Shown here piece by piece: positions 3,725 to 32,350 of a stretch of DNA of 36,183 bases (within the stretch, counting starts at the first letter, position 1; each line of letters starts with the position of its first letter). Origin of the DNA: a virus. Its lineage: Duplodnaviria > Heunggongvirae > Uroviricota > Caudoviricetes. The stretch lies in the IMG/VR virus record IMGVR_UViG_2551306525_000009. The stretch is one strand, 5' to 3'. Position numbers and translations under genes: made by a program. A model generated the notes under the pieces. The model was given only the letters and a program-made list of their open reading frames with translations, did not search any database and was not told where the DNA came from.

Positions 3725-3778
3725 TAAGTAATATGCAGGCGGCGCAGTGCGTCGCCTCTGACTGAAAGGAGTTTCCTG

Positions 3779-4144: not shown

Positions 4145-4308
4145 TCACGGTTGTGTGCTTTGAGCACATAGAAGACTTTGTGGCAGATATTGCCGTTATT
4201 TTTAACTGGTCGCCCGCCGAAATCTTCATGATGACGCCCGGCGAAGTGGTTAGCTGGCGTGAGCGGGCGGCACTTCGCAGCGGGAATGCAGACAATGAAG
4301 ACTCTTGA
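4095..4308 (+). CDS. E': E' extension of the E+E' frameshift product (tail assembly chaperone fusion)
   Basis: -1 frame from slippery site translates ERCGLWREERTGDG...NEDS, equal to the ORF-track 4072..4308 frame; conserved E/E' (lambda G/GT-like) arrangement. Confidence 0.7.
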
Positions 4309-8284: not shown

Positions 8285-8312
8285 TTATCTAAAACCTCGG
8301 TTTGCAGGAAAC
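8285..8312 (+). repeat. left inversion crossover site (gix/hix-like) TTATCTAAAACCTCGGTTTGCAGGAAAC
   Basis: 26/28 match to the inverted copy at 11235-11262; resembles Gin/Hin crossover sites (from memory). Confidence 0.75.
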
Positions 8313-9198: not shown

Positions 9199-9199
9199 G

Positions 9200-9727
9200 A
9201 TGATGCACCTGAAAAATATTAAGGCCGGGAATCCGAAAACACCGGAACAATACCAGCTAACTAAAAAAGCGGGCGTGGTATGGCTCTTTTGTGAAGATGG
9301 CAAAAACTGGTATGAGGAACAAAAGAATTTTCAGCCAGACACCATAAAAATTGCTTACGATGAGAACAACATCATCGTTGCTGTCAGTAAAGACGTTTCA
9401 ACTATTAATCCTGAAGGGCTAAGCATAGTTGAAGTTCCTGATATTACGGCAAATCGTCGCGCAGACAATAACGGAAAATGGATGTTTCTGGATGGTAAAG
9501 TAGTAAAGAGGGAATATACAGAACAGGAACTGCAACAACAGGCCGAATCACAAAAGGCCGCATTGCTTTCCGAAGCTGAATCAGTCATCCAGCCGCTGGA
9601 ACGCGCTGTCAGGCTGAATATGGCAACAGACGAGGAACGCACACGACTGGAAGCATGGGAACGCTACAGTGTTCTGGTCAGCCGTGTGGATACGGCAAAT
9701 CCTGAATGGCCACAAAAGCCTGAATAA
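9200..9727 (+). CDS. alternative tail fibre assembly chaperone (Tfa')
   Basis: [14 protein letters not shown]... paralogous to the Tfa at 9756..10289; ATG 1 nt after the Sv' stop. Confidence 0.8.
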
Positions 9728-9732
9728 AAATT

Positions 9733-9752
9733 AAGGCCCGATATCGGGCCTT
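9733..9752. terminator. bidirectional hairpin between the convergent tfa genes (AAGGCCCGAT/ATCGGGCCTT)
   Basis: perfect 20-bp palindrome read directly. Confidence 0.6.
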
Positions 9753-9755
9753 CTC

Positions 9756-10289
9756 TCATTCTGGTTGTTCGGGAAACGTTACTGGCAGGCTGGAAGTGTC
9801 TGTAGATTCGACTTTCTGCGCAAAGAGCATCCACTCTGTTAATTTTTGTTTATTCTCGTCGGAAATGATGCCCAGCCGTAGCTGTGAGTCCCATAGCTGG
9901 GTTTTATCCCTGACAAGTTGCAACAGGCTTTGCTTTTCATTTTCCGCTTGTTGCCTCTGCTCTTCCTCGGTACAAGTTCGCTTTATCACTACGCCATCTT
10001 TGAACATCCATTTCCCCGAAATATCAGCCCGGCGATTTGCTGTAATATCAGGTAATTCAACGACGCTTGCCCCCTCTGGATTAATTGCTGAAACATCCTT
10101 TTCAATGCAAATAATAACGCCGTTATGGTCATAGACCATTTTCAAAGTGTCTGGCTGGAAATTCTTTTGTTCCTCATACCAGTTTTTTCCATCATCTGAA
10201 TAAAGCCACTTAATGTTAAATTGCTTTGTTAGCTGGTACTGCTCCACTGTTTTAGGATTACCAGCGGTAATGTTTTTTAAGTGCATCAT
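9756..10289 (-). CDS. G: tail fibre assembly chaperone
   Basis: 177 aa, MMHLKNITAGNPKTVEQYQLT...; immediately downstream of the fibre gene. Confidence 0.85.
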   Translation of the reverse strand: MMHLKNITAGNPKTVEQYQLTKQFNIKWLYSDDGKNWYEEQKNFQPDTLKMVYDHNGVIICIEKDVSAINPEGASVVELPDITANRRADISGKWMFKDGVVIKRTCTEEEQRQQAENEKQSLLQLVRDKTQLWDSQLRLGIISDENKQKLTEWMLFAQKVESTDTSSLPVTFPEQPE

Positions 10290-10291
10290 AA

Positions 10292-12394
10292 TTAAATACT
10301 TCCCGCGTTATACCAAGTCCCATTAATGCAATACTGAATTGGCCTTGCCTGAGTTGTATCAATTAATTCATCACGGTTTCCGTTAACTGAACCCGTAACG
10401 ACATAACCTGACCTGTCAGACCAGCCGGGACCATTCCATGTCTGAACAGATGACAGACCGCCAAGGCGAATACCTGTAATAAACCTTGAGTTACATTCTG
10501 CCTGCGTATATGCACCAACATCTCCCGCAGAGGGTTTGCGGGTTGTGGTGTAAAACTCTGACCAGTCAGCTTCAAAGCCATAACCATCACGCGCTGAACG
10601 ATAAAAGATACCGCCATTTCTGTAATTCACGCGGAACTGTGCAGCAGGGCAACTCCCCGTATTCATATTGAAGTGGAGGATTAATGTCGATGCGCCACCA
10701 ATATTTGCGTTATAGACCCCGCTATTCCAGTTCCAGCCAACAGCTTTATCATTTCCGACAGTGCTTCCTGTTTGCCCTAAAGCAAATGCAGGTTGTTGAT
10801 TTTTCGTGTTGTAGTCTCGTCGCCAGCCAGGAGCATAAGCATCACCATGATTAATATAAGTGAATTGAGCGTTAGTAATTCCGCCACCGCTGGACGTGCT
10901 CGGCGTAGTAACGCGTATGGTCATTGCGCCGCGAGTGCCAATAACTTCCACCACAGCACCTGCAAGACAAATATTTCCGCAACCTGTATCTGTAATGACC
11001 TTATTATTTGCATAAGCCCATGAGCCTTTGCACATCCAGTAAGGATGGTTAAATGCTCCCTGACTCTCCAGCCACGAAATAAATTGCGCGGTTGTCCAGA
11101 CCTGACTATCGCCACCAATATTCAGCCATGAGCTATATGCGCGGCAGGCACCAATATTTTTGGTGAAGGTATCTTTTCCTGGAATATCTGCGCCGTTCTG
11201 GTTTTTCTGTAATGCGCCAGAAGCCTGATTTACCGTTTCCTGCAAACCGAGGTATTCGATAACGGCAGCAACGTTCGATTTCGCAAGAATATCCCGCCCG
11301 ACTTTTGTCAGGGTTGCCAGGCTGGCGACATCATTCCCCGTAAAATACGGAAACTTGTCTGCCGCAGTAGCAAGCCCGGCCAGCGCCGTCAGGGTGGCAT
11401 CTTTCGGTTGCTTACCCGCAAGCGCGTTAGTCATGGTGGTCGCAAAATTCGGGTCGTTGCCCAGCGCCGCCGCCAGCTCGTTCAGCGTGTTCAGTGCGTC
11501 AGGTGAAGAGTCTACAAGTGCGGCAATCGCGGCCATAACGAAAGCCGTGCTTGCGATTTGGGTATTATTCGTTCCCTGTTGTGCAGTTGGTGTTGTTGGC
11601 GTTCCGGTCAGTGCCGGGCTGTTTAATGGGGCTTTCTTGTTCGTTTCATCCATTACCGCCTTAACTGCTTTTGGTGTCGCTGCCAGCGTTTCAGACGTGC
11701 TGTTGGTTGCACTGCTGAGCTGGACTATCCCTTTTCGTGCCGTCGTGGCGTCCTGAGCGGTATATTTTCCGTTAGCCAGGTCATACGCGGCCTTAACCGC
11801 TTTCGGCGTTGCGGCCAGCGTTTCAGAATCGCTGTTAGTGGCGCTACTGAGTTGAACAAAGCCTTTTGCGGTCAGCGAGGCGTCCGGGTGACGTCGTGAC
11901 TGTTCATGCTCTTTCAGTTTGTCATCCACGTAATCCACTGTGGCCATCACCATGGTGTTATCCACGGTAAGCGCCACGGTGGCAGTGCTGGATACGGTCA
12001 GAATGGTGCGAAATGTTTGTGCACGACCGGACCCTTCGGCAACGGCTGGCTTGTAACTTTCGGCAGTATTGCCCACCGCGATTAAATCGCCGTGCTCATC
12101 AAATACACCAATTTCCCGGATCCAGAATCCGCCCGTTTCAGGAGGAATAACCAGCTCCGCAATAATGCGGTTCTGATGTGTTGCGTCCAGGATGACGCGA
12201 TTAACAGTGTGTCGCCACACCTCATGCACCAGACGGGTCTGCTTACTGTCTGGTGTGGGCAACGTGCCGCCACCGTCGCCCACGGCCATATGAGTCAGGC
12301 GGACAGGCTTACCATCTGGCGCGGCTGCCTGAGCTAATTTTTTTGCACCCGTATCGGTGATAACGGTTTTAAATTTTCGTGTTGTGGTACTCAT
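10292..12394 (-). CDS. H: tail fibre protein (constant N-terminal part fused to the currently expressed variable C-terminal part)
   Basis: 700 aa; gix-like site embedded at the constant/variable junction (11235-11262). Confidence 0.85.
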   Translation of the reverse strand: MSTTTRKFKTVITDTGAKKLAQAAAPDGKPVRLTHMAVGDGGGTLPTPDSKQTRLVHEVWRHTVNRVILDATHQNRIIAELVIPPETGGFWIREIGVFDEHGDLIAVGNTAESYKPAVAEGSGRAQTFRTILTVSSTATVALTVDNTMVMATVDYVDDKLKEHEQSRRHPDASLTAKGFVQLSSATNSDSETLAATPKAVKAAYDLANGKYTAQDATTARKGIVQLSSATNSTSETLAATPKAVKAVMDETNKKAPLNSPALTGTPTTPTAQQGTNNTQIASTAFVMAAIAALVDSSPDALNTLNELAAALGNDPNFATTMTNALAGKQPKDATLTALAGLATAADKFPYFTGNDVASLATLTKVGRDILAKSNVAAVIEYLGLQETVNQASGALQKNQNGADIPGKDTFTKNIGACRAYSSWLNIGGDSQVWTTAQFISWLESQGAFNHPYWMCKGSWAYANNKVITDTGCGNICLAGAVVEVIGTRGAMTIRVTTPSTSSGGGITNAQFTYINHGDAYAPGWRRDYNTKNQQPAFALGQTGSTVGNDKAVGWNWNSGVYNANIGGASTLILHFNMNTGSCPAAQFRVNYRNGGIFYRSARDGYGFEADWSEFYTTTRKPSAGDVGAYTQAECNSRFITGIRLGGLSSVQTWNGPGWSDRSGYVVTGSVNGNRDELIDTTQARPIQYCINGTWYNAGSI
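11235..11262 (-). repeat. right inversion crossover site (gix/hix-like), reverse complement TTATCGAATACCTCGGTTTGCAGGAAAC
   Basis: inverted copy of the site at 8285-8312; lies inside the H reading frame at LGLQETVN. Confidence 0.75.
11658..11867. repeat. imperfect tandem duplication (period ~132 bp, 44 aa) within the constant part of the fibre gene
   Basis: GCCTTAAC(T/C)GCTTT...CCAGCGTTTCAGA... occurs twice; encodes the repeated VQLSSATNS.SETLAATPKAVKA motif. Confidence 0.6.
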
Positions 12395-12396
12395 GC

Positions 12397-12927
12397 TTAA
12401 TCGTCCGGATAAATGGTAATAACTTCACCGTCATAAGTTGCCGCCGCTGCGAAAATATCCCCCGGAATTTCCTGAATGATATTCAGCCCTGTCATGTGGC
12501 GGCTGACCGGACGGGCATCAGCAATCAACCGCTCCATTTCCAGATACATTTCCTCCGTCACGCCACTGTCCAGTGTGCCGACTTCAACGGTAAATGTTCC
12601 CGGTTCTCCGCCGAACTCCCACCACTCAGACACGCGAATGAGGTATCCCAGCGGCTCAATGGCCCTGCGCAGTGCGCTGATGGTCCCTTTGTGTCGGTGT
12701 ATCAGCCATGCATCACGAATCACCTGTCGCTTTGTCTCTTCCGGCCAGTTGCGATCCCAGCGGTCAACGGAAAACGCCCAGGCGAGATAAGGCAGCAGAT
12801 GCACCGGGCAGGTGTCCGGCGACCACAGCGTGTTGAGGTCTACCGGAATGTCTGTAATGCGTGTTCCGACGGCTTCGGCACAACGCATGAAATTGCTGGC
12901 TGATGGTGGTAACAACGAATTACTCAT
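12397..12927 (-). CDS. I: baseplate protein I
   Basis: similarity to P2 gpI (LLPPSAS, WLAWAFSVDRWD, HKGTI, MERLIADA blocks); start at internal ATG 12927 (ORF track 12960). Confidence 0.8.
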   Translation of the reverse strand: MSNSLLPPSASNFMRCAEAVGTRITDIPVDLNTLWSPDTCPVHLLPYLAWAFSVDRWDRNWPEETKRQVIRDAWLIHRHKGTISALRRAIEPLGYLIRVSEWWEFGGEPGTFTVEVGTLDSGVTEEMYLEMERLIADARPVSRHMTGLNIIQEIPGDIFAAAATYDGEVITIYPDD

Positions 12928-17892: not shown

Positions 17893-18693
17893 TTAACCGC
17901 GCTTCGCCTTCTGCGTCGCGGTGGTTTTTCGTGTTGCAGGCTTCCGCGTTGTCTTTTTACTTTTGCTGCTTTCGTCCTGCGCCTGCGGTGTGCTGGCATC
18001 TTCTGGTGCGGCTGCGGAATCGGCTTTTTTCAGGGCGCGGGAAAGGGTTGCAATCTCGCGTTTCACACCTGCGTTCGGGTTCAGGTGCATTGCTTCGCGC
18101 AGCAGCTTCAGTGACAGGGCCATGCTGTCCGCATCACTCAGACCACGACGGGCAAAGGCGCACGCCTTGCATAATTTGGCGCGCACTTCGTCCGGCATGT
18201 CCTGGTCGGTGACAATCTCCCGGAGGGTGTCCAGTGGTTCGATAAAGGCGGACAAATCCGCGTCGGCATCCGTCCCGGCCTGCGTCAGTACCGGGTTGCA
18301 GATTTCTTCGGTCAGTACCGTGGCAGCAGTACGGCCAAAGTTATCCGGCATGATGAGGTTGTGACGGACCACATATGCACCAATACGCAGCGCCAGCGGA
18401 AGATCGCCGCAGTCAATCGCCCACACCATCAGCGTGGCAATCACTTCATCCTGCTGCCCGCCGTCAGCCTCCAGCGTTCCCTCAATCCAGCCGGAAAAGT
18501 CCGGCAACAACTCTTTTTTGATGGCGGCTTTCGCGCTTCTGGCCTGTACGCCCTTAAGCCGGGCCTGTGCCAGACGCAGACGATACAGCACCTCTTCATG
18601 CGCGGTACGCGCGGCGTGGTCCACGCCTTCATTCGCCCGGCCTGCGCGCTGTGCCATCACGTTCTGCCAGTGTTGCTGTGCAGGAGTAATCAT
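17893..18693 (-). CDS. M: terminase small (endonuclease) subunit M
   Basis: similarity to P2 gpM (DMPDEVRAKL, KKELLP blocks), basic C-terminal tail. Confidence 0.8.
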   Translation of the reverse strand: MITPAQQHWQNVMAQRAGRANEGVDHAARTAHEEVLYRLRLAQARLKGVQARSAKAAIKKELLPDFSGWIEGTLEADGGQQDEVIATLMVWAIDCGDLPLALRIGAYVVRHNLIMPDNFGRTAATVLTEEICNPVLTQAGTDADADLSAFIEPLDTLREIVTDQDMPDEVRAKLCKACAFARRGLSDADSMALSLKLLREAMHLNPNAGVKREIATLSRALKKADSAAAPEDASTPQAQDESSKSKKTTRKPATRKTTATQKAKRG

Positions 18694-20804: not shown

Positions 20805-22556
20805 ATGATTCAGGACGCTTTTGTGCGCCAGCGTGCGCGGCAACTTTACTGGCAGGGTTATCCGCCCGCAGAAATATCACGTCTGATGGGAATAAACCCG
20901 AACACGATTTATGCGTGGAAAAAACGTGACCAGTGGGATGAAACGCCACCCGTGCAGCGTGTCACGCAGTCCATCGATGCGCGCCTCATCCAGCTTACTG
21001 AAAAACAGAATAAAACAGGCGGTGACTTTAAGGAAATAGACCTGCTGACCCGGCAGCTTAAAAAACTGCATGATGGCCAGCCGGATGCGACGGCCACAGG
21101 AAAGAAAGGCCGGGCGAAAAAACTCAAAAATCATTTCACGCCGGAACAGATTGCCGCACTGCGGGAAAAAATCATCAGCAGGCTGGAGTGGCATCAGCGG
21201 GGCTGGTTTGACGCCCTGACCCTTTGCAGGGAAGCCGGGATACGTAACAGGATGATCCTGAAATCCCGACAGATTGGGGCGACCTGGTATTTTGCACAGG
21301 AAGCACTGCTGATGGCGCTGCGTGACGATGTGGCGCAACCTTACCAGCGTAACCAGATTTTTTTGTCTGCGTCGCGTCGTCAGGCGTTCCAGTTTAAAAG
21401 CATTATTCAGAAGGCCGCGGCTGAAGTTGATGTGGAGCTGAAAGGGGGCGATAAAATCATCCTCTCCAACGGCGCAGAGCTGCATTTTCTCGGCACTTCT
21501 GCTGCGTCGGCACAGTCCTATACGGGCAATTTTTATTTTGATGAATTTTTCTGGGTCAGTCGCTTTGCTGAACTGCGCAAGGTGGCTGGCGCTATGGCAA
21601 CCCTCAGCGGACTGCGGCGCACCTACTTCTCCACGCCATCCACCGAAACGCACGAGGCATACGCCTACTGGAACGGCGACCGCTGGAACGAGAAAAAGGC
21701 CTCGCATAAACGCCAGCGTTTTTCTGTGGACTGGGAAACGCTGCATAACGGACTTATCTGCCCTGACCGGACGTGGCGGCAAATTGTCACGCTGGAAGAT
21801 GTGGTTAATCACGGCTGGAAACACACCGATATTGATGAAATTCGTGATGAAAACACCGAAGACGAGTTCCGCAATCTCTATATGTGTGAGTTTGTCCGCG
21901 AAGGGGAATCGGCATTTAACCTGAATATCCTGATTGGCTGCGGTGTTGACGGATACGACGACTGGAAAGACTGGAAACCTTTTGCTCCCCGCCCGATGGG
22001 GAATCGTCCGGTATGGATTGGGTATGACGCAAACGGCAGCAGTGGCAACGGCGACAGCGGCGCGGTGTCCGTGGTGGTTCCTCCGGCTGTTCCTGGTGGC
22101 CGTTTTCGAACGGTGGAGACGCGACGCGTTCAGGGGCTGGAGTTTGAAGAACAGGCCAGAGTCATTGAAGAGTTCACGTGTCGCTACAACGTGGAACACA
22201 TCGGCATTGATGTGACGGGTGGGAACGGGGAGGCTGTTTATCAGATAGTGAAACGGTTTTTCCCTGCTGCTATTCCGTACACCTTCACGCTGTCATCAAA
22301 ACGGTCGCTGGTACTGAAAATGCTGCAAATAATGCGTGCCGGGCGGTGGGAATACGATCGCGCCGAACGCGAGCTGGTCGCGGCCTTTAACGCCGTGCGT
22401 AAGGTGAAAACACCGGGCGGCTTTATCACTTACGAAACGGACCGCGCGAGGGGGATCAGCCACGGCGACCTTGCGTGGGCAACCATGCTTGCTGTCATTA
22501 ACGAACCGATTGGCGGCGAAGGAGAAAACGAGCGTTTCACGGTTATGGAGTTCTGA
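20805..22556 (+). CDS. P: terminase large (ATPase) subunit P
   Basis: 583 aa; divergent from O as in P2. Confidence 0.9.
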   Translation: MIQDAFVRQRARQLYWQGYPPAEISRLMGINPNTIYAWKKRDQWDETPPVQRVTQSIDARLIQLTEKQNKTGGDFKEIDLLTRQLKKLHDGQPDATATGKKGRAKKLKNHFTPEQIAALREKIISRLEWHQRGWFDALTLCREAGIRNRMILKSRQIGATWYFAQEALLMALRDDVAQPYQRNQIFLSASRRQAFQFKSIIQKAAAEVDVELKGGDKIILSNGAELHFLGTSAASAQSYTGNFYFDEFFWVSRFAELRKVAGAMATLSGLRRTYFSTPSTETHEAYAYWNGDRWNEKKASHKRQRFSVDWETLHNGLICPDRTWRQIVTLEDVVNHGWKHTDIDEIRDENTEDEFRNLYMCEFVREGESAFNLNILIGCGVDGYDDWKDWKPFAPRPMGNRPVWIGYDANGSSGNGDSGAVSVVVPPAVPGGRFRTVETRRVQGLEFEEQARVIEEFTCRYNVEHIGIDVTGGNGEAVYQIVKRFFPAAIPYTFTLSSKRSLVLKMLQIMRAGRWEYDRAERELVAAFNAVRKVKTPGGFITYETDRARGISHGDLAWATMLAVINEPIGGEGENERFTVMEF

Positions 22557-23602
22557 TGAGCAGAAAAAATAAAAAAGTGCGCATGAGTTCACGCATTGAT
22601 CTCGCTGATGCGCTCAGGAAAGAATCATCGCTCAGTGCATTCACATTTGATGGTCCTTATCGCCTGACCGGGCATGACCTGCTGGACAATATGTACTGTG
22701 CTGATAACGGGCGGTGGTATGAAACCCCGGTGGACTGGTACGGTCTGGCAAGAGCCGCCCGGCAAACGTCCTGGCATCAGTCTGCGCTTTACTTTAAGCG
22801 CAATGTATTGCTCGGTTGCTACATCCCGCACCCGCTGCTTTCCCGGCAGGATTTCTCGGCGCTGGCGCTGGACTGGTTTGTGTTCGGTAACGCATTCCTT
22901 GAGCTTCGAAGCAATATGCTCAGCGAACCGCTAAAATTACGGCACGCCCTGGCGAAATACATGCGACGCGGAAGCGATCTTGAATCATGGTGGTATGTGC
23001 AGGATGGCAAGGATGCGTTTCAGTTTCGCCCAGGCAAAGTGTGCCACCTGATGAATCCGGATATTAACCAGGAAATCTACGGCATGCCGGAATATCTCGG
23101 CGCATTACTCTCGGCCAGCCTGTCTCATTCGGCGGACATGTTCAGAAAACTGTATTACGACAACGGATCCCACGCCGGGTGCATCATCTACATCGGTGCA
23201 GCGCAGGTAAACCGCGAAAGCATGGACTCCCTGAAAGAAACGCTACAGGGTGCGCGTGGTGGTGGTGCGTTTAAAAACGTGCTCATTCATGCGCCCAACG
23301 GGGGCAAAGAGGGGGTGCAAATTTTGCCGTTCCAGCAGATCACCGCAAAGGATGAGTTCATGAATGTTAAGGCGGCATCCCGTGATGATGTGCTGGCTGC
23401 GCACCGCGTTCCGCCGCAACTGATGGGGGCGATGCCGGGTGAAAAAAGTGCGTTTGGTGATGTGGAGAAGGCCGCGCGGGTTTACGCAATTAACGAGCTG
23501 ATGCCCGTCATGGAGGCCATGAAGCACATCAATGACTGGCTTGGCGAAGAGGTGATCCGCTTTAACCCTTATGCACTGCTGGACACCCAGCCCACATCCT
23601 GA
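22556..23602 (+). CDS. Q: portal protein Q
   Basis: 348 aa; start overlaps P stop (TGATG). Confidence 0.85.
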   Translation: MSRKNKKVRMSSRIDLADALRKESSLSAFTFDGPYRLTGHDLLDNMYCADNGRWYETPVDWYGLARAARQTSWHQSALYFKRNVLLGCYIPHPLLSRQDFSALALDWFVFGNAFLELRSNMLSEPLKLRHALAKYMRRGSDLESWWYVQDGKDAFQFRPGKVCHLMNPDINQEIYGMPEYLGALLSASLSHSADMFRKLYYDNGSHAGCIIYIGAAQVNRESMDSLKETLQGARGGGAFKNVLIHAPNGGKEGVQILPFQQITAKDEFMNVKAASRDDVLAAHRVPPQLMGAMPGEKSAFGDVEKAARVYAINELMPVMEAMKHINDWLGEEVIRFNPYALLDTQPTS

Positions 23603-23629
23603 CGCGCTTCGCTTGTCTGCTGCTTCGCC

Positions 23630-23652
23630 GGGGCATAAAAAATTTATGCCCC
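23630..23652. other. hairpin 28 bp after Q (GGGGCATAAA-aaa-TTTATGCCCC)
   Basis: 10-bp perfect stem read directly; no U-tract, function unknown. Confidence 0.4.
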
Positions 23653-23932
23653 GACTCTCCAGCTCCTGTATCAGTCAGATAATTTCACGACGCTTTCCTG
23701 CTTATTGCCATCATCGACGGTCAGATTCTTACGCAATCCCACCGCGTTAACTGCATGTTCTCGCCGCCTCAGTGCGATTTTGACGGCCTTACCTTTCACC
23801 CCATCAAATCAAAAGCCCTCACGTCTTTTTCACGCTCAGCGTGAGAAATACAGCCATTCTGTTGTGTTGCTGCGACATCGTTCAGGGGATGCTATTTACC
23901 CCCTGAAACGCGGGCTGTTCCCCCGTCACCTG

Positions 23933-23956
23933 CGCGCAGAAAAAGCGCGTTTTTTT
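23933..23956 (+). terminator. rho-independent terminator (CGCGC-agaaaaa-GCGCG followed by T7)
   Basis: GC stem plus seven T read directly; could stop read-through from the P-Q operon. Confidence 0.5.
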
Positions 23957-24026
23957 GTGCACGCACGGATCCTTGACGGATCCAGCCGCCATGCGGGCCG
24001 GAAGGGTAAAAAGTCGTTCAAAAAAA

Positions 24027-24053
24027 TTGTGCAAATTTGTGCACTATTGTGCA
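24027..24053. repeat. three direct TTGTGCA repeats at 10-bp phasing (TTGTGCAAAT TTGTGCACTA TTGTGCAAC)
   Basis: read directly; helical-turn spacing suggests a protein-binding array. Confidence 0.5.
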
Positions 24054-24070
24054 ACAGAGAAAGAAGGCCA

Positions 24071-24102
24071 GGAAGAAAGAAAAGCCGCCTTCAAAAGGCA
24101 GC
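24071..24102 (-). terminator. rho-independent terminator closing the leftward accessory operon
   Basis: minus strand reads GCTGCCTT-ttga-AGGCGGC then TTTTCTTTCTTCC, 43 nt after the 24145 stop. Confidence 0.6.
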
Positions 24103-24144
24103 TTTTCAGATTAGTAAGGGATTGATAGATAGTCGTCGCAAAAC

Positions 24145-24525
24145 TCAAAAAGAAGACTGGAACTCTTCTGCTCTGCGCTCAATTTCTGCCATGTAGGATG
24201 TACGGGCTAACTCATGCGCATTGGGTGTCATAATGCTGATTAGCTGATACTTATCTGGATATAAGAAATGGCGGGAGTAAACAAGATAACTGTTTGATTT
24301 ACGCGAGGCGGCAGGTAGCTTTGCAGGCCACGGCTGTTCATCAGGTAAACGAATGTGAATCTTAAAAACAAAAGAATCACGAAGACGCCCGCTATCTTCC
24401 CACTGCCCTTCGTTGCCAAAGACTGAGGGTAAAGATCCGCCGTTTTTCCATGACTGCAAAGCATGTGCATATTTGCGAGCAACTGCGGGGAGTTCTATGT
24501 CATTGTGGACAGAGACTTTAATCAT
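24145..24525 (-). CDS. YafO-like toxin-domain protein
   Basis: 126 aa; C-terminal LISIMTPNAHELAR...AEEF resembles E. coli YafO (LIAILKPEPHKLAR...AEAF, from memory); also SLPSVFG vs VLPDIFG and SYLVYS vs AHLVYC. Confidence 0.5.
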   Translation of the reverse strand: MIKVSVHNDIELPAVARKYAHALQSWKNGGSLPSVFGNEGQWEDSGRLRDSFVFKIHIRLPDEQPWPAKLPAASRKSNSYLVYSRHFLYPDKYQLISIMTPNAHELARTSYMAEIERRAEEFQSSF

Positions 24526-24534
24526 GGCCCTGCC

Positions 24535-25128
24535 TTAATGGAACGTTGGATCTTTAAGGCCCAGCTTTTTATGTTCACTGCGGATAAGTGCGCGAACCTG
24601 ATCGGCGGTAACACCCAGATCAGCATCTGAAGTTTTCTTCGGCACATGCGTGCTTTCAATGAAGGATAAAATATCTTCAATCGTATAGCGGAGCGTCGCA
24701 GCGGAACGAGCAAAAGCGACAATCTCTTTTCTCAGTTCCGCGTTACTTTCAGGTACGCTTTTCAGCGCAACCCTTGCAGCCTCGACAAAACTTGCACATA
24801 CCGCAATATGACGGAAAAGGCTTTCAAACCCTTCCTGAGTCTCTTTTTTCTGATTTTTCAGAATAATAGGGATCTGCTTTTCTTCCCATTCGATGCGAAG
24901 GTTTGCCCTGTGTGTCTTCATCCTATCAGCCAGGTTAAGCATATAACTGGTGGCCTCATCAATAGGAAGGTATGCCACAGAATCCTTTACGTCCTGGAGG
25001 GATAGCGTAGACGTACTGTGCCGGGAGATTGATAAGTCATGATGCACAATGCTACTGGCAGGAACAGGGGCGAGAGCCACCGCCAGCGCTGCGGCCATAG
25101 ATGTTATTTTATTTTTTTTACTGCTCAT
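24535..25128 (-). CDS. hypothetical protein, 197 aa, N-terminus resembles a signal peptide or TM anchor (MSSKKNKITSMAAALAVALAPVPASS)
   Basis: ORF with GGAAAGG RBS; 9 nt upstream of the YafO-like gene; not recognisable as YafN/RelB-type antitoxin. Confidence 0.55.
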   Translation of the reverse strand: MSSKKNKITSMAAALAVALAPVPASSIVHHDLSISRHSTSTLSLQDVKDSVAYLPIDEATSYMLNLADRMKTHRANLRIEWEEKQIPIILKNQKKETQEGFESLFRHIAVCASFVEAARVALKSVPESNAELRKEIVAFARSAATLRYTIEDILSFIESTHVPKKTSDADLGVTADQVRALIRSEHKKLGLKDPTFH

Positions 25129-25217
25129 AATTGCCTTTCCTGCCAATAATCGTGAACCACTGCCGGAATGATAGCGCAAAAAATCACCCGCTGAAACGAA
25201 TTATCCTTGCGGCAAAA

Positions 25218-25304
25218 CTAGCCCGCGTCAACCTCATACCACGCCAGCGTCGATTGATAGTTTTGTGCCGCCTCGCGTAATGCCTGATAGTCAATTTTGC
25301 TCAC
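25218..25304 (-). CDS. putative 28-aa micro-ORF (VSKIDYQALREAAQNYQSTLAWYEVDAG), GTG start overlapping upstream stop
   Basis: AGGAGG 7 nt upstream of GTG; GTGA overlap with stop of the 174-aa gene; identified manually. Confidence 0.3.
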   Translation of the reverse strand: MSKIDYQALREAAQNYQSTLAWYEVDAG

Positions 25305-25825
25305 TGGTTGCCTCCTTTGTGTTGCGTCAGCTCTTCCTGCGCCTGCATCATGCGATTGACCTGAATGCGTGTGCGTCGAACGGCAAAATTAAATTGAAAC
25401 ATGAGCCGGAACATTTCTGAGGCTTCCGTGTGAGCATCATGGAGAGGTGACAGGCGGTACAGTTCTGCCTCCGTAGCTTGTTGAATCAATGACAGATCAA
25501 ATTGAAGTGCGGGTCTGGTACATTTTGCACTTCTGGCAGCAAGCTCCGGCATCAGTTTCTTAACGAAGGTGTTTTGCACCGCTTTGTTGAGTTGTGTCTG
25601 CATCCAAATCGCAAATTTCAGCGAACGCATAAGTTTGATAGCCTCGGGCAGCGGCAGATAGATCATGCTGGTAGATTTGGGTGGTTGGTGAATCATCTTC
25701 ACGGATACGCGATTTCGCAGCGTTCGGAAAATCGTGTTCCCAACAACAGCTTCTACGGATACAGGACAGGGAGCCAGACCAGCCCGCAGTGCTTCTTTCA
25801 TTGGCATGTATTCGTATTTTTTCAT
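25301..25825 (-). CDS. hypothetical protein, 174 aa
   Basis: ORF with GAGGA RBS; no family recognised. Confidence 0.55.
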   Translation of the reverse strand: MKKYEYMPMKEALRAGLAPCPVSVEAVVGNTIFRTLRNRVSVKMIHQPPKSTSMIYLPLPEAIKLMRSLKFAIWMQTQLNKAVQNTFVKKLMPELAARSAKCTRPALQFDLSLIQQATEAELYRLSPLHDAHTEASEMFRLMFQFNFAVRRTRIQVNRMMQAQEELTQHKGGNQ

Positions 25826-25885
25826 CGTGTTTTCCTCGTGCGGGGCGACAGTGCACCCCGATAAAATTAAAAGCCGTCAAATTCG

Positions 25886-26221
25886 TCATTCATGCGTTTT
25901 TTCTTCATGGTCTGTCACTTCTCCCCTGATAATTTCATTGCACAAATCCACGCACTCATTGCAGATGTAAACAGACGGTCCGGCAATCACCTTTATGACT
26001 TCGTGCTGGGATTTATTGCAGAAGCTGCAATAAATCGTCTTCTTGCCTGAAGTCCATGTTTTGCTGATTTCGCCAGACATCAGTTGCTTGATGTCTTTTT
26101 CACGACGAAGAACTATCTGGCCACATTCAGCTATTTTTTGGATGTTGACATTTTCTTCTTTCGCCAGCGCTTCCATTCGCTCAATCAGTCGCTGCGCTTT
26201 TTCTCTGTCAATGTGTTGCAT
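25886..26221 (-). CDS. small protein with ClpX-type C4 zinc-binding domain (ZBD) at its C-terminus
   Basis: [39 protein letters not shown] is near-identical to the E. coli ClpX N-terminal ZBD ([39 protein letters not shown], from memory); GGGGG RBS. Confidence 0.8.
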
Positions 26222-26255
26222 TGTGTCCCCCTTGTTTATGTTCCCGGATTAAAGT

Positions 26256-26279
26256 CATCAGGGCGGATGCGCCCTGATG
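26256..26279. other. hairpin between parR and the ClpX-ZBD gene (CATCAGGGCG-gatg-CGCCCTGATG)
   Basis: perfect 10-bp stem read directly; may separate transcription units or stabilise mRNA. Confidence 0.45.
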
Positions 26280-26284
26280 TTGTG

Positions 26285-26596
26285 TTATTCGGGAAATAAC
26301 GCCCGGATATTTCTGGCCATCTGACTGGTTATCTGTGCGGTTGATACTGGCTGTGACGCGGGGCGTTCTGTCCTGGTTTGTGTCACCGATAACGCCTCAT
26401 CGTCAGCCCATGCAGCCAGTCGGTAAGCCTCTGCCGGATTCATTTTCAGAAGTGCCAGCCCGGCCAGAAAAGCCACGCGTTGGCCGCTTTTGCGGGCTTC
26501 TGGTGTAAGGCTGTCCAGCCAGGCGCATGCTTCGCCTTCGTTCTTGACGGCGGCGGGCTTCAGATAGAAACTTATCCGTCTGGTTGGTGTCGTCAT
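26285..26596 (-). CDS. parR: ParR-like ribbon-helix-helix centromere-binding protein
   Basis: RRISFYLKP...LDSLTPEARKSGQRVAFLAGLALLKMNP...IRALFPE parallels plasmid R1 ParR (from memory); AGGAG RBS. Confidence 0.7.
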   Translation of the reverse strand: MTTPTRRISFYLKPAAVKNEGEACAWLDSLTPEARKSGQRVAFLAGLALLKMNPAEAYRLAAWADDEALSVTQTRTERPASQPVSTAQITSQMARNIRALFPE

Positions 26597-26600
26597 TGGT

Positions 26601-27560
26601 TTACTCCTTGTCCATTGCGTACAGCCCATTAACCAGAGCAAACTGTGGCACCCCGTCCGCGATGAAAGTCGCATTAACTCCGCAGGCTTCGCGGATAGCG
26701 GGTGCCACAATCTCCGCCCCTCCACCGACAACCATCACCCGCCCGTAACCCGAAAAACCCGCCAGCGCGCGGATCACGCGTTGTTTCAGTGTTTCTTCCT
26801 TTTCACGAATAACCTCCATCAGGCTGGCGTAATGCGCGTCATTGTGGATGTGCTGGCGCAGCCAGGCTTCATTATGGCGATGTTCGATAATGGTATTGGC
26901 GATGTGGTGACTGGTGCGCATACCGTTAGTGGCCATCACCGACAGTACGGCATCGGCCATCAGAGAAACGCCTACGTGTGGATCGCAAAACACCTGGCTG
27001 ATACCTGCCAGTTGCCCCTGAACCTTTGCCACATCCAGCGTGGTTCCGCCCAAATCTACAATCAGCAGGGATTCAAACGGACTCATGTCAGCCAGTGCCT
27101 TAAAGCCAGCCGGAATGGATTCAGGCATAACCCGCACGTTACGGATAGTGAATGCTTCGCCGTTCTGGTACTCCACCGGGCGCATAACGTTCGCTTTTTT
27201 GCGGTTGATGTTGGCCATGTCCGGCTGTGCGTTTGTGTCGAAATACTCGCTCAGTGGCAGGGTGACAACCACATCCACCTCCTGTGGCGTGATGCCTGAT
27301 TTGACCAGCGCGTGATGAATGGCAATGACATTCACATCGCTGTACTGGTATTGCGTGTCGGTCGTCTGGACAAAGCGATCGCTGACCGGATCAAAACCAT
27401 AGCGCACGCCATCAAGCATGTAGTTCGCAGGCTGCGAGCCACCGAACGGCGCAGACCATTCCGACTTGAAGCTGTTCGGGCTGATGGCGTTGCGGCGTTC
27501 GCCGTTCTCAGTCCATGCCAGCTTGATGTTGGTGGAGCCGTCGTCGATACAAATTTTCAT
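26601..27560 (-). CDS. parM: ParM/StbA-family actin-like segregation ATPase
   Basis: MKICIDDGSTNIKL (phosphate-1), LIVDLGGTTLDV (phosphate-2), VVGGGAEIV (adenosine) motifs; 319 aa. Confidence 0.8.
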   Translation of the reverse strand: MKICIDDGSTNIKLAWTENGERRNAISPNSFKSEWSAPFGGSQPANYMLDGVRYGFDPVSDRFVQTTDTQYQYSDVNVIAIHHALVKSGITPQEVDVVVTLPLSEYFDTNAQPDMANINRKKANVMRPVEYQNGEAFTIRNVRVMPESIPAGFKALADMSPFESLLIVDLGGTTLDVAKVQGQLAGISQVFCDPHVGVSLMADAVLSVMATNGMRTSHHIANTIIEHRHNEAWLRQHIHNDAHYASLMEVIREKEETLKQRVIRALAGFSGYGRVMVVGGGAEIVAPAIREACGVNATFIADGVPQFALVNGLYAMDKE

Positions 27561-27596: not shown

Positions 27597-27627
27597 GGGA
27601 TTCTGAAATCCCGTTTTTGCCTGTTTT
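27597..27627. repeat. repeat unit 1: GGGATTctgaAATCCCGTTTTTGCCTGTTTT (internal 6-bp palindrome), between parM start and A stop
   Basis: read directly; second near-identical copy 74 bp away. Confidence 0.6.
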
Positions 27628-30463
27628 ATGCGCGCTTCATATATCGCGGCGCGTTTTTTTGCTCATTTATGGGATTTGTGAATCCCGTTTCTGTCTGTTT
27701 TTTGTTTCCACTGGTCAGGCCACCCCGCAGCAGGTCTGCTTTGCGGCGGGCGCGTTCAGTGGTTTCACTGATTCTCTGTGCGTGCTCTGCGTCGCGGATG
27801 GCGCGCAGCATGTCAGAAAGCACGGTAACGGGTGTTTTCATGGTGTTCTGGTCCTGCTGAAGTGTGGATGCCAGGCGTGCGGCGGCTTCAGGGTCTGATG
27901 CCCCCAGCTGTGCCAGATAGCTGGCGACCGGGTTATGGCGGATCTCCGTGCTGCTTACATCGTGATTACGGCTCAGGCGCTGCCAGAGCTGCGTGATTCG
28001 GCTGTCCGGGCGGGTATCCGGTTTGCGTACAATTTCAAATCCCTGCGGTGCAATGATGCTGCCGTCAACGTACAGACTGCCGCCCCGTAACAGGTGCTGC
28101 ATCTGTTGTTCACCGATATGCAGGCCAAGGGATTCAGCAGACTCCCGCCATTCTTTAGCGAGTAATTCGTGGTTATCAGGCAAAGGCCGCTGCTGTTTGC
28201 GGCTCTGTGTCCAGCTCTGCATTTCATCACTGTTGTTTTTTGCCTGTTTGTCACGCAGCGAACGCATCAGCGCCCGGCGTTCGTGCCGTTTCAGTGAGTG
28301 CAGCCATTCGTTCACTTCAACACCGTCAGGGATCTGCGGCCACGGTGCTGGCCGTTCTTCCGGCTGTTCTGTCCCGTTGTTGTCCGTTTCCTGTACACGG
28401 GGACAGTTATTGCCACGAGTCCAAGGGGCGGCAGGGCCGCCCTGAAGGTCAAAACCATTTTCGCGGGCGCTGTCTTCCGCTTCCGGTTTACGTCTTACCA
28501 GCTTCCAGTTATCCGGATGCGTGCACACACGGGAGGATTCCCCGATGAGTGGTGACCAGATCCCGTAAATCTGTACGCTCTGTTCGCCGTAATCGTTCAG
28601 CTCATCGGCGAGGTCGTAGGCGGTGCGAATCAGGTAGTCCTTGCGTGGAACAAGTACGCCGCCCTGTTTCTCTATATAGGTGGCAAAACATCCGGCATCA
28701 GCGGCAGCGAGTACCGCATCCATTGCGTCATCCTTCAGCCGTTGCGGGCCTTCCGGGTTGCGTGCCATCTGGCTGGCAAGGCGGCGGAGTTCACGCCACA
28801 CCTGACGGGAGGGGATGCCAAAGAACTGGAACTGGCGGACCCGGTGAAGGCGCGCCCAGCCGATGGCGCGCTCCACGCTCTCGGCCATTGATTTTCCGGT
28901 TTCGTGGTCAACGCGTGGTTTGCCCGTTTTCGGGTCGATGCCATCCACGGCGCGGCTGTCCAGGTTCTTTCCGATGTAGGTGGCGATGTAGCTGGTTGGC
29001 GTGCCTTTTGAGCCGTCTACATACTCCGCCTTAAAGCGCGGAGTAATATCATCACCCAGCTCGTGACGATCTTCCTGAATGGCAATATCGCGGGTGTGGG
29101 ACACAATGGTGTCGATTTCTTCCGGATGGGCAAAGACCATCATATGCCAGTGTACGGTGCCGTCATGGTGAGGCTCCACCGTGCGGATGCCATACCAGCG
29201 CAGGCCGTCGCGGTTCAGTTTTTTGCGGACCGCCGCAAAAAACGTGTTAACCAGGTAGTCGCTGGAGTCGCGCATGGTGGCCCCGTTCCATTTGGGGTTC
29301 GGATGACCGTTCTCCGTTGTTGCGTGGTATTTTGACGGGCAGGTGACAGTCAGAAACACCGCTTTGTCACCACGGGCTTCGGCCAGAAGTTCCAGCCCCT
29401 TCATGGTGGCCATCATTTCTGCCTTACGGTGAACCGGGTTACTTACTCCCGCGTAATACACTGTCTCGAGATCAATCGTGAACCCGTCTTCGTTTTCCAG
29501 CATGAAACTTTTCAGGAAATCGCGTGTTTTCTCGCGCTGTGCGCGAAACTCGCTTAACGCGTCCTGGCTCAGATAAGGCGATGTTTTTCTGGAAACCAGA
29601 CAGGCGGCGCGGAGTTGTTCTTCTCTCCACTCGCAACGTAACAGCCACAGTTTGCGTTTCCACCAGTCCGCACAGGTCAGGCGAAGGATTGCGCCCGGCA
29701 GCAGTTCCGTATCCGGTTCGCTCTTGTTCAGGGCTTCGTAATGTGGCGGCATGATGTGCAGGCGTAATGCGATACGAGCCAGCATCCGGTAAGCCTTCAA
29801 CATTACATCCATGGTCAGCTCGCCATCTCTGGCACCAAAGCCATCGCAGAGTGTTTCGAAGGTGCTGCTGAACATCGCCGCGGTCATGGTGGCCAGCGTC
29901 TGTATCTGGTGCTTGTTGAGCTGCGGCAGGTAAAGCAAATCGTCCAGGCGTTCGCGCCCGGCAAGGGAGCGATAACCCGGTGTCAGCCAGCGTCCGTCAG
30001 TGCGATCCAGACGTTCGAATATTTTGCGCAGGGGTCCGCGTGCATAGCGTTCCGCCTGCCAGCTCTTTTTACCTTTCTGGCGATCGGCTTCCTGTTTTTT
30101 GCGCAGGAAAGAGAGGTGGCGGCTCAGTGGTTCACGCAGATAAACAGGTAGTGCCTTTAGTGTGGCAAAGGCACGGGCTACCGGGTCTTGTTCTGTTGCC
30201 CGGCGCTTACTGATGATGCTCTGTGCCAGCTTTTCACGCTGTCCGGCTTCCTCAAGGGATGCCATGAGTTTTTTACCCATGGCGGATTGTGCGAAAAAGG
30301 CTTCTTCCTTCGCTTCCTGTTCTTCCTGTGCCCTTTTGTCCGCCTCAAGGTAGTAACGGATGGCGCGTTGCAGGTCGGTTTCAGTTTCCTGCCTGCGCTC
30401 CGTAAATCTGGCCGGATCAATGGCTGGCCGTGGTTCATTCCAGCTCCATGCAAACTCGCTCAT
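27626..30463 (-). CDS. A: replication initiation protein A (rolling-circle initiator, P2 gpA family)
   Basis: TVTCPSKYH, VEPHHDGTVHWHMMVF and YIATYIGKN active-site blocks as in P2/186 gpA; start either ATG 30463 (ATGA-coupled) or GTG 30490. Confidence 0.85.
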   Translation of the reverse strand: MSEFAWSWNEPRPAIDPARFTERRQETETDLQRAIRYYLEADKRAQEEQEAKEEAFFAQSAMGKKLMASLEEAGQREKLAQSIISKRRATEQDPVARAFATLKALPVYLREPLSRHLSFLRKKQEADRQKGKKSWQAERYARGPLRKIFERLDRTDGRWLTPGYRSLAGRERLDDLLYLPQLNKHQIQTLATMTAAMFSSTFETLCDGFGARDGELTMDVMLKAYRMLARIALRLHIMPPHYEALNKSEPDTELLPGAILRLTCADWWKRKLWLLRCEWREEQLRAACLVSRKTSPYLSQDALSEFRAQREKTRDFLKSFMLENEDGFTIDLETVYYAGVSNPVHRKAEMMATMKGLELLAEARGDKAVFLTVTCPSKYHATTENGHPNPKWNGATMRDSSDYLVNTFFAAVRKKLNRDGLRWYGIRTVEPHHDGTVHWHMMVFAHPEEIDTIVSHTRDIAIQEDRHELGDDITPRFKAEYVDGSKGTPTSYIATYIGKNLDSRAVDGIDPKTGKPRVDHETGKSMAESVERAIGWARLHRVRQFQFFGIPSRQVWRELRRLASQMARNPEGPQRLKDDAMDAVLAAADAGCFATYIEKQGGVLVPRKDYLIRTAYDLADELNDYGEQSVQIYGIWSPLIGESSRVCTHPDNWKLVRRKPEAEDSARENGFDLQGGPAAPWTRGNNCPRVQETDNNGTEQPEERPAPWPQIPDGVEVNEWLHSLKRHERRALMRSLRDKQAKNNSDEMQSWTQSRKQQRPLPDNHELLAKEWRESAESLGLHIGEQQMQHLLRGGSLYVDGSIIAPQGFEIVRKPDTRPDSRITQLWQRLSRNHDVSSTEIRHNPVASYLAQLGASDPEAAARLASTLQQDQNTMKTPVTVLSDMLRAIRDAEHAQRISETTERARRKADLLRGGLTSGNKKQTETGFTNPINEQKNAPRYMKRA
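27671..27701. repeat. repeat unit 2: GGGATTtgtgAATCCCGTTTCTGTCTGTTTT, inside the 3' coding end of gene A
   Basis: read directly; candidate parC-like centromere/operator or part of the replication origin. Confidence 0.6.
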
Positions 30464-30849
30464 GGCTGGTATCCCGTCACGCGCTGCCACTCCTGCGAGA
30501 AGATGGCGGAAAGGCGGTTAAATTCAGCGGTGTATTCACTCAGCGAGGCACACCCGCCAGCAGTGCGATGCGCCAGCATTGCCGCGAATACGGAGGCCGG
30601 GGAGTCGTAATACGCCAGCAGTGATTCGCCGTGTGGTGTCAGGCAGTGCAACGCCAGCCCGTGTGGTGTGAAGTCCACGCGGTAGCAGTCGTCTACTGTG
30701 AAATAAAGGGTGTCCGCATTCTCCGGTTTTGTAGTGCGTGCTCTGTTGTCACGACCACGGATGTAAAGATCAAATAATCCCTGAAGAACGGGAGCCAGAC
30801 GGGTGTCCTGTGTGCGCACCCATCTTGTGAAGTCATGAGCGTCAATCAT
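30460..30849 (-). CDS. hypothetical protein, 129 aa, stop overlapping A start
   Basis: ORF translationally coupled to A. Confidence 0.5.
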   Translation of the reverse strand: MIDAHDFTRWVRTQDTRLAPVLQGLFDLYIRGRDNRARTTKPENADTLYFTVDDCYRVDFTPHGLALHCLTPHGESLLAYYDSPASVFAAMLAHRTAGGCASLSEYTAEFNRLSAIFSQEWQRVTGYQP

Positions 30850-31519: not shown

Positions 31520-32350
31520 TTACTTCACCGGAACAAACGGAACAGCGGTATTACTGGTCATGTATTGCGGCAGCGTGCCGTTCCATTTGTTGATAGCTTC
31601 CAGCTCCATAACGCCGGGGTTCTGGCGCAGAGCTTCACCGCGCAAACGAATGGCGTCGGCTTCAGCCTGGGCTTTTGTGCGAATGGCATCAGCCTGTCCG
31701 GCTGCTTCTGCGCGTAGCATGTTGGCTTCTGCTTCGCGCTGCTTGACTTCCTGTTCGCGTTGCAGAGTTTTCTGGTTTGCCGTGACTTTGGCATTAATGC
31801 TGTCGATAACGGTTGGTGGGTATTCCGGTTTACCGACATAAGAGAGGCTCATTACCTGAATGCCGATAGGTGTCATTTCTGCCTGAATGTCTTTAAGTGC
31901 TGAATCCAGCAGTTCAGACTTGCCACCGTCGATAAATTTATCGGTGGTCATTTTACTGGCCAGTCGGTTGAGTGCGTCGGCGATCTTCTGGCGCAGGTCA
32001 GTGTCGGTAATGTCATCCACGCCTTTGCGGTAGGTCTGAAACACTGTAGTAACTTTGGATGGATCAACCTTGTAGGCCACACCGATGTGATAGCCGATGG
32101 TTGTGCCGTCACTCATCTGAAAGCTGAACGGCTCATCGTAGGTCTTCATTTGTTTGAAGGTTGGGAAGATGTAAACCTCTGTATTCCAGCCTGTCCAGTA
32201 GCGGCCAACGCCAACCACTTCACCGACGCCTTTGTCGTCGCCCAGTTTGTTGACTTTGATGCCCACATTACCTGGCTCAACGCGATCGCAACCAACCAGC
32301 AGGATGGCAGCAAAAAGCGGGAGAATCTGAAAGAGTTTGAATCTCTTCAT
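31520..32350 (-). CDS. SPFH/band-7 (stomatin/HflK/C-like) lipoprotein
   Basis: lipobox LLVGC after signal peptide; SPFH-like core then Ala/Glu/Arg-rich coiled-coil tail (EADAIRLRGEALRQNPGVMELEAINKW), assigned by sequence character. Confidence 0.65.
   Translation of the reverse strand: MKRFKLFQILPLFAAILLVGCDRVEPGNVGIKVNKLGDDKGVGEVVGVGRYWTGWNTEVYIFPTFKQMKTYDEPFSFQMSDGTTIGYHIGVAYKVDPSKVTTVFQTYRKGVDDITDTDLRQKIADALNRLASKMTTDKFIDGGKSELLDSALKDIQAEMTPIGIQVMSLSYVGKPEYPPTVIDSINAKVTANQKTLQREQEVKQREAEANMLRAEAAGQADAIRTKAQAEADAIRLRGEALRQNPGVMELEAINKWNGTLPQYMTSNTAVPFVPVK

Follow-up and report, generated by a model that had tools for sequence, protein, structure and literature searches.

The window, the whole stretch of viral DNA analysed here (36,183 nucleotides), is a P2-family prophage of the P88/Xuanwuvirus type (Peduoviridae). 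The stretch under study, 23603-24144, lies after portal gene Q and ahead of the variable region that leads up to replication gene A, a layout also found in P2 and 186, and both terminase genes (gpM and gpP) are encoded in the window. The genes and features that bear on the analysis are the following, in window coordinates.

17893-18693, minus strand: terminase small subunit gpM (Pfam match, Phage_term_smal).
20805-22556, plus strand: terminase large subunit gpP with an N-terminal HTH (Pfam, Terminase_5, residues 6-63).
22556-23602, plus strand: portal protein gpQ (Pfam match, PF04860), the left flank of cos.
23629-23653, plus strand: stable hairpin after the Q stop codon (11-bp stem, 3-nt loop, -22.2 kcal/mol, z -5.0), without a U-run.
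23823-23851, no strand assigned: palindrome around CACGCTCAGCGTG, between Q and cos.
23888-24053, minus strand: predicted functional cos region, comprising the cohesive end with about 20 bp towards Q, the proximal site, the 72-bp spacer and the distal array.
23912-23932, minus strand: predicted cohesive-end (nicking) region, with 13/19 identity to P2 and the register set against P2, 186, P4, RSA1 and phiCTX.
23932-23950, plus strand: terminator-like hairpin followed by seven T, overlapping the cut region.
23955-23961, minus strand: proximal site TGCACAA, which reads TTGTGCA on the plus strand and has an A-tract after it, located at -36 relative to the CGGGG anchor.
23962-24026, no strand assigned: spacer from the proximal site to the array, with ACGGATCC twice (23965-23983) and T-tracts at 24008-24012 and 24020-24026.
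24027-24053, minus strand: distal array of three TGCACAA sites at 10-bp phasing, at -108, -118 and -128 from the CGGGG anchor.
24079-24107, minus strand: intrinsic-terminator-like hairpin and T-run at the end of the leftward YafO cargo operon, in the hotspot and outside cos.
24145-24525, minus strand: YafO-family toxin gene (PF13957, E 2e-27), the first cargo gene.
27626-30490: replication gene A (gpA), to the right of the cos-adjacent cargo.

A Pfam search of the open reading frames in 23603-24144 gave no matches. We therefore treat as spurious both a 163-aa ORF (23705-24196, plus strand), which has no Pfam match and spans the homology break described below, and a 59-aa ORF (23571-23750, plus strand), likewise without a Pfam match; the 'hypothetical proteins' annotated at cos in P88-type records are probably spurious too. 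An Rfam scan returned no family at the gathering threshold, and its weak match to gyrA-RNA is the hairpin after Q, which is the positional counterpart of P2 tQ and 186 tW. Elsewhere in the window, the gene layout between 770 and 12394 is unlike that of P2: gpD (770-2002) lies on the minus strand, the sheath, tube and tape-measure genes (2028-7102) lie on the plus strand and are followed by a gpU-sized ORF (7109-7603, plus strand), and a gp37-like fibre fragment (8302-9198, plus strand) opposes fibre genes H and G (9756-12394, minus strand), in a segment (8302-12394) that could be invertible or alternative. A protein of the SPFH/Band 7 family is encoded among the early genes (31520-32350).

The original prediction, made from the sequence by eye, had described in this region three TTGTGCA repeats at exact 10-bp phasing, a hairpin after Q, a 13-bp palindrome, tandem GGATCC palindromes and a terminator. 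The repeats were confirmed on the plus strand at 24027, 24037 and 24047, with steps of exactly 10 bp (on the minus strand the sites begin at 24033, 24043 and 24053), as were the hairpin (23629-23653), whose perfect stem is 11 bp long rather than 10, the palindrome (CACGCTCAGCGTG at 23831-23843) and the GGATCC pair (ACGGATCC at 23965 and 23976). A fourth TTGTGCA, absent from the earlier list, lies at 23955, 72 bp ahead of the array. For the terminator the outcome is mixed: hairpins with T-runs do exist, one at 23932-23950 and a strong one on the minus strand at 24107-24079, but the fold of the former is no better than those of shuffles (z -1.2), and three of the related loci discussed below (L115, L098 and L026) lack its stem, so that we rejected it as a conserved intrinsic terminator; its T-run corresponds to the A-tract conserved at the proximal site.

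As a word, TTGTGCA is not over-represented in the window (10 copies vs 9.3 expected). Its phased arrangement is far beyond chance: no 7-mer occurred three times at equal 8-12-bp spacing in any of 20,000 dinucleotide-preserving shuffles of 23603-24144, and the TTGTGCA array is the sole such case in the real 36-kb window. The site steps of 72, 82 and 92 bp correspond to about 7, 8 and 9 helix turns, which places all four sites on one face of the helix. Read from the sequence, the repeats do not form the Ogr/Delta activator pattern TGT-N12-ACA.

A packaging site had been expected here by synteny with P2, with a cohesive end that was judged not recognisable. The expectation is borne out by a diverged cohesive end and a conserved geometry of sites, and the end can in fact be recognised: a sequence of the G+C-rich GGYGAGGCGGGG... 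type is present on the minus strand at 23930-23912, where GGTGACGGGGGAACAGCCC is identical to the P2 end GGCGAGGCGGGGAAAGCAC at 13 of 19 positions in an ungapped comparison. Within its first 7 nt the window end has a 2-nt deletion (GGTGA vs GGCGAGG in P2), which leaves it 2 nt shorter ahead of the CGGGG block than the ends of P2, RSA1 and SEN4/SEN5, and because of this deletion a search of the whole window with the P2 19-mer at up to 3 mismatches found no match. The end is preceded by the TGCAYWAAAA motif of the family and by GCGCA; the motif is fitted by the proximal TGCACAAAAAAAC at 23961-23949, about 29 nt ahead of the predicted top-strand nick, and the proximal site corresponds to TGCATTAAAACC within the 55-bp core of P2/P4. 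The joined ends of P2, 186 and P4 were compared with the window in the minus-strand reading, the one that matches P2's orientation. With a slash at the junction, they are GGTGCATTAAAACCGCCCCGTGAAGCGGGCG / GGCGAGGCGGGGAAAGCAC in P2 and ACTGCATTAAAACCGACCCATAAAGTGGGCA / GGCGTGGCGGGGAAAGCAT in 186, and their counterpart in the window is CGTGCACAAAAAAACGCGCTTTTTCTGCGCGCA / GGTGACGGGGGAACAGCCC. The window end is also close to RSA1 GGTGAGGCGGGGTCCCAAC and to SEN4/5 ggcgaggcgggggaacgag, the reported ends being GGTGAGGCGGGG... for RSA1 (PMC5694545) and ggcgaggcgggggaacgag for SEN4/SEN5 (PMC5261728).

From these comparisons the nicks can be predicted to within ±2 nt. The bottom-strand nick is predicted after ...AACAGC at 23914, in register with P2, 3LV2017, RSA1 and phiCTX. 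For the top strand, the constant distance from the sites points to a nick before CAGGTGA at 23932, giving a 19-nt overhang, and the sequence context (a GG start) points to one before GGTGA at 23930, 2 nt from the distance-based placement; the 21-nt end of phiCTX starts one base ahead of its GG and is thus a precedent for an overhang that begins upstream of GG. The 5' overhang is most likely CAGGTGACGGGGGAACAGC (23932-23914, 19 nt), and the predicted alternatives are GGTGACGGGGGAACAGC(CC), starting at 23930. No record or contig starts at the predicted cut among 47 matching phage records and the 120 loci that an exact-match scan of IMG/VR with a 22-nt core returned. The start of LR595891 (~24007) was considered as a cos end and rejected, as it falls at an arbitrary position inside the spacer. 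In one relative (L054) homology to the window stops at 23932, but the L054 sequence at 12853-12900 (GGTAATGACTCCAACTTATTGATAG...) is what we take to be an IS1 terminus, and the stop is therefore no evidence for the cut site. This putative IS1 terminus sits exactly in the predicted nick region, and the prophage that carries it is presumably inactivated.

We then compared the site across 14 elements (P2, 186, PSP3, P4, RSA1, phiCTX, 3LV2017, phiT5282H, Kp4845-1, the window, L016, L026, L098 and L115), which comprise phages of Escherichia, Salmonella, Klebsiella, Enterobacter, Ralstonia and Pseudomonas together with P4 and two satellite-like elements. Upstream YGCAN motifs were listed for each element relative to the C of the CGGGG block in the cohesive end, this anchor being set by the deposited end where a record starts at cos and otherwise by the single core match chosen. 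TGCAY-type motifs stand at -36, -107/-108 and -117/-118 in all 14 elements, the -117 copy of Kp4845-1 being degenerate (with -36, -107 and -127 kept), and 13 of the 14 have an outermost copy between -127 and -136, phiCTX being without one. In P2, 186, PSP3 and P4, TGCAT is found at -36, -108 and -118 with the outer copy at -127 to -131, and in the Ralstonia phage RSA1 it is found at -36, -107, -117 and -136. Pseudomonas phiCTX has YGCAG at -36, -107 and -117. Klebsiella 3LV2017, Enterobacter phiT5282H, the window and L016 have TGCAC at -36, -108, -118 and -128, some copies in this group carrying a C or A substitution, and in L026 the sites are shifted by 1 nt, with the distal ones at -107/-117/-127. 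In some relatives the outermost site has degenerated (to CGCAC or TGCAA) and may therefore be dispensable. By lineage, then, P2, 186, PSP3, P4 and RSA1 carry TGCAT, phiCTX carries YGCAG, and the P88 type, 3LV2017 and phiT5282H carry TGCAC, as do their satellite-like elements. The absence of the repeats from related phages, which had been named as an outcome that would count against the original prediction, is not what we found, as they are present in P2, 186, PSP3, P4, RSA1, phiCTX and others.

In an alignment of 10 sequences (A3), no columns outside the core are invariant except those of the TGCAY motifs. Between -100 and -40 the lineages have unrelated DNA, and the start-to-start distance from the proximal site to the array is 72 bp in P2, 186, P4, the window, L115 and phiT5282H, across spacers of unrelated sequence. 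Since the motifs are invariant at fixed distances while the intervening DNA is unrelated, the TTGTGCA array is the P88-type form of a cos element found throughout the family. The literature on P2-family cos yielded only the 55-bp core of Ziermann & Calendar 1990, with its 19-nt 5' cohesive ends, as that study is cited in PMC5694545, PMC3931495 and PMC9594776; distal phased TGCAY sites did not appear in the papers found, and they may possibly be described in Ziermann & Calendar 1990 itself. The distal feature (-108/-118/-128) was derived in the present analysis from P2, 186, PSP3, P4 and RSA1, and our literature search found no cos described for the P88/Xuanwuvirus group. Longer flanks around the P4 55-bp core improve cosmid transduction up to ~50,000-fold (PMC9594776), a gain that fits a functional distal array without identifying it.

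Over 23500-24250 the window is 93-98% identical to the Escherichia phages P88, 500465-2 and 520873 and to Citrobacter phiSM. The block from Q to cos is matched by 1148 E. coli records, representing 1147 of 5426 complete genomes (~21%), and its identity is 93-99% in these records and in P88 and phiSM. In P88 and phiSM, which are active phages (PMC5285337, PMC6456863), all TGCAC sites are identical to those of the window, and the sequences part immediately past the outermost site. Most of the 120 IMG/VR loci are P88-like prophages too, with homology to the window that runs from Q to 24053-24063 and then ends. A few elements share far less: of the whole window, L098 has only 23888-24054 and L115 only 23894-24053, at 81% identity, and L142 likewise shares only 23888-24054. 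L098 and L115 preserve the core, the four TGCACAA sites and the 72/10/10 spacing exactly; what is rewritten in them is the spacer, together with the GGATCC pair and the GCGCGC...GCGCG stem. Among diverged phages, L016 (Q ~70% identical) keeps 23909-24052, and in L026 (Q ~72% identical) the blastn match covers only 23901-23964, with the distal sites still present. That L098 and L115 share cos alone with the window, as P4 does with P2, marks 23888-24053 as the putative functional unit, a cos region delimited by comparison.

Several of the features first noticed at the locus fall outside this shared unit or are not kept within it. Neither the satellite-like elements nor the diverged relatives have the CACGCTCAGCGTG palindrome, which is thus not part of the shared cos, and the hairpin after Q, the 13-bp palindrome, an inverted repeat of TTCAGGGG and CCCCTGAA, and the GGATCC pair are conserved among close kin only. 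As parts of cos, therefore, the TTGTGCA array stands, but the GGATCC pair, the palindrome and the hairpin after Q do not.

Both L098 and L115 carry genes for an integrase, a Toprim primase, an Ogr/Delta-like protein and a capsid homologue. In L115 the integrase is P4-like, the capsid homologue belongs to the P2 family, and a second integrase and MazF are encoded as well; the L115-type element of a complete genome is located at tRNA-Arg, and there the Ogr/Delta-like product is a zinc-finger protein. An identification with P4 was rejected, as tblastn matches only int and orf88. Judged from its gene content, the L115-type element looks like a satellite of P88-type helpers with a capsid gene of its own. 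Such elements are ~12.5 kb long, lie at tRNA-Arg/yfdC and occur in 57 of 5426 complete E. coli genomes (coordinates in our loci: L115:1-12700; L098:1-4500; L142:10400-22950). Their gene order is int, an HTH regulator, an Icd-like gene, the Toprim primase (897 aa), the second integrase and the P88-type cos, followed by the Ogr/Delta-like zinc finger, a 236-aa unknown protein, the P2-family major-capsid homologue (35% identical to window gpN) and MazEF.

On its other side the cos region ends abruptly. Across 97 distinct relatives, an identity to the window of at least 90% gives way to ~30% in the step from 24053 to 24054, where the array has its outer edge. This agrees with the hotspot next to cos that Rousset et al. 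2022 (PMC9122126) described in P2-like phages, and it sharpens the hotspot boundary to 24053/24054. The homology of most relatives ends at 24053-24063, before the terminator at 24079-24107, and the flank with this terminator and YafO is common to only 7 of the 1148 matching E. coli records. Within the hotspot of the window (24145-27560), a 66-aa ORF (24522-24722) overlaps the start of YafO and could be its antitoxin; the hotspot also holds a 214-aa protein without a Pfam match and a ParM-like actin-type segregation protein (26601-27560), an unusual cargo for an integrated P2-type prophage. The Q side shows variation as well: in L012 (11359-11989) an insert of ~630 bp with a 187-aa ORF lies between the end of Q and cos (window 23583/23599), and the same Q-side split is seen in L019, L021, L040 and others. 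This would be a second, smaller insertion point, like that of ctx in phiCTX. A prophage remnant (L112:7142-9207) has cos (window 24054-23585) fused to tail genes (window 4487-2891) through a deletion of ~19 kb, one breakpoint of which falls within Q, close to its 3' end. The distal TGCAT array of P2 (33452-33478; L004:850-880) lies just upstream of the old-tin mRNA starts at 33424/33426, and terminase sites and a cargo promoter may overlap there.

Taken together, we consider it very probable that the region is the cos of a P88-type prophage built on the plan of P2, 186 and P4, in which the four same-face TGCAC sites are the recognition array of the terminase; the original prediction's suspicion that the TTGTGCA array binds protein was in this sense well placed. 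Read along the minus strand, the elements follow one another as three TGCACAA (24053-24027), a 72-bp step, TGCACAA with its A-tract (23961-23950), GCGCA and the cut region (23932-23912). On this arrangement, a terminase component encoded by the phage would bind the four sites cooperatively and bend the spacer, the candidates being gpM, the small subunit, or else gpP, the large one, through its N-terminal HTH. The gpP nuclease would thereby be placed ~29 nt from the proximal site, and its staggered nicks would produce a 5' overhang of ~19 nt that is rich in G+C and most probably reads CAGGTGACGGGGGAACAGC. The terminase would remain on the array-bearing end, so that the cargo/early-gene end would enter the capsid first. 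By analogy with lambda cosB and SPP1 pacL/pacR, cooperative binding to four sites would both position the nuclease and hold the terminase on the end.

Which protein reads the sites can be narrowed from their distribution, since the motif type tracks the phage lineage and its satellites and not the host, and the reader is therefore most likely phage-encoded. The 186 record notes a putative HTH in its gpP homologue. The recognition-helix residue of the gpP HTH is Gln in P2, Tyr in the TGCAC group and His in RSA1 (TGCAT) and phiCTX (YGCAG), and in alignments of gpP and gpM from seven phages both proteins follow phylogeny and do not cleanly track motif type. A bolder proposal, to which we give somewhat less than even credence, is that the four same-face TGCAY sites, beyond the 55-bp core, are the specificity determinant and that their fifth base (T, C or G) sorts helpers and satellites into packaging groups. 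The groups, proposed just as tentatively, would be P2, 186, PSP3 and RSA1 with P4, the P88 type with the satellite family, unremarked until now, that has a P2-type capsid gene of its own, and phiCTX alone. If such a fifth-base switch were true, whether a satellite can be mobilised by a given helper would be predictable from the cos sequence alone.

The distribution of the motif also bears on a different reading, in which a host architectural protein binds the TGCAC sites and bends cos while the terminase reads the core only. That the four sites share just a short core, that TGCA is invariant from E. coli to Ralstonia hosts, that T-tracts follow the array and that lambda cos uses host IHF would all agree with a host protein. 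Yet the fifth base differs between lineages that share E. coli as host (T in P2/186/P4, C in the P88 type), satellites carry the motif type of their presumed helpers, and the IHF consensus WATCAANNNNTTR was not found inside 23888-24053 at up to 1 mismatch, and we regard binding by a host protein as unlikely. Less probable again, and in our view quite improbable, is that the array is a transcriptional element (a cargo promoter or operator, or a site for a late-gene activator) that lies beside cos by chance. The position of the P2 array just upstream of the mapped old-tin mRNA starts (33424/33426) and the minus-strand hairpin and T-run that overlap the array would fit such a role, but the array is fixed while the neighbouring cargo content differs completely among the 97 relatives, and cargo is found in either orientation (PMC9122126). 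In P4, moreover, the array follows the psu stop codon with no gene between array and cos, the distance from array to cut is constant within 1 nt across genera, and a promoter scan of 23400-24400 found nothing. That cos lies elsewhere or packaging is headful, the region being a degenerate relic of a P2-type cos, is scarcely credible: although its physical ends are predicted ones and its core differs from that of P2 at 6 of 19 positions plus an indel, the block keeps 93-99% identity across 1148 E. coli records as well as in P88 and phiSM, both of them active phages, the satellite-like elements have no other sequence in common with the window, and the P2 19-mer is without a match anywhere else in the window.

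A terminase recognition array in a P2-type cos can also be set against packaging sites already known. Like the cos of P2, 186 and P4, the region adjoins portal Q, has a G+C-rich GGYGA..CGGGG end, a proximal TGCAYWAAAA and a triple TGCAY array at -108/-118/-128 with a 72-bp step to the proximal site, carries a defence/cargo hotspot on the array side and is shared with satellites or satellite-like elements. It differs from them in its motif, which is TGCAC(A/G)A and not TGCAT, in its end (GGTGA, through the 2-nt deletion, vs GGCGAGG), in having GCGCGCA in place of the GCGGGCG stem before the nick, and in its distance from Q (~290 bp vs ~186 bp), the ends in the window being predicted ones. With the cos of phiCTX (21-nt end) it has in common the motifs at -36, -107 and -117 from the anchor, and there the depositors had already annotated repeats across cos (R4-R6; NC_003278). 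Unlike the window, phiCTX has the motif YGCAG, and attP and an IHF site adjoin its cos. SPP1 offers a parallel for the spacing: at pacL/pacR two sets of boxes that lie apart from each other are bound by the small terminase subunit, which loops the intervening DNA (PMC7617512), and the two groups of sites with a spacer of fixed length in the window likewise suggest a loop or wrap. SPP1, however, uses pac/headful packaging and not cos, and there is no homology between the two. The resemblance to lambda cosB is one of function only, in that short repeated sites on one side of the nick anchor the terminase and set the direction of packaging. In cosB the R3-I1-R2-R1 sites are bound by the small terminase subunit gpNu1, together with IHF. 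Unlike cosB, the window shows no sequence relationship to lambda and no IHF consensus, its sites lie on the end opposite the terminase genes, and their binding by terminase is something we infer. An ordinary P2-type cos that has a site sequence of its own and a core shorter by 2 nt is a well-supported description of the region.

For the P88/Xuanwuvirus group, the analysis provides a concrete predicted cos, and for the family as a whole it extends cos to ~130 bp on one side with a fixed geometry. This suggests that designs of cosmids and transducing particles based on P2 and P4 would be well advised to include ~130 bp on the array side, beyond the 55-bp core, in line with the large improvements obtained with longer flanks (PMC9594776). 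It also links a distinct group of satellite-like elements to the P88-type cos, and the lineage-specific motif that these elements have in common with the phages provides a sequence-level handle on packaging between helpers and satellites.
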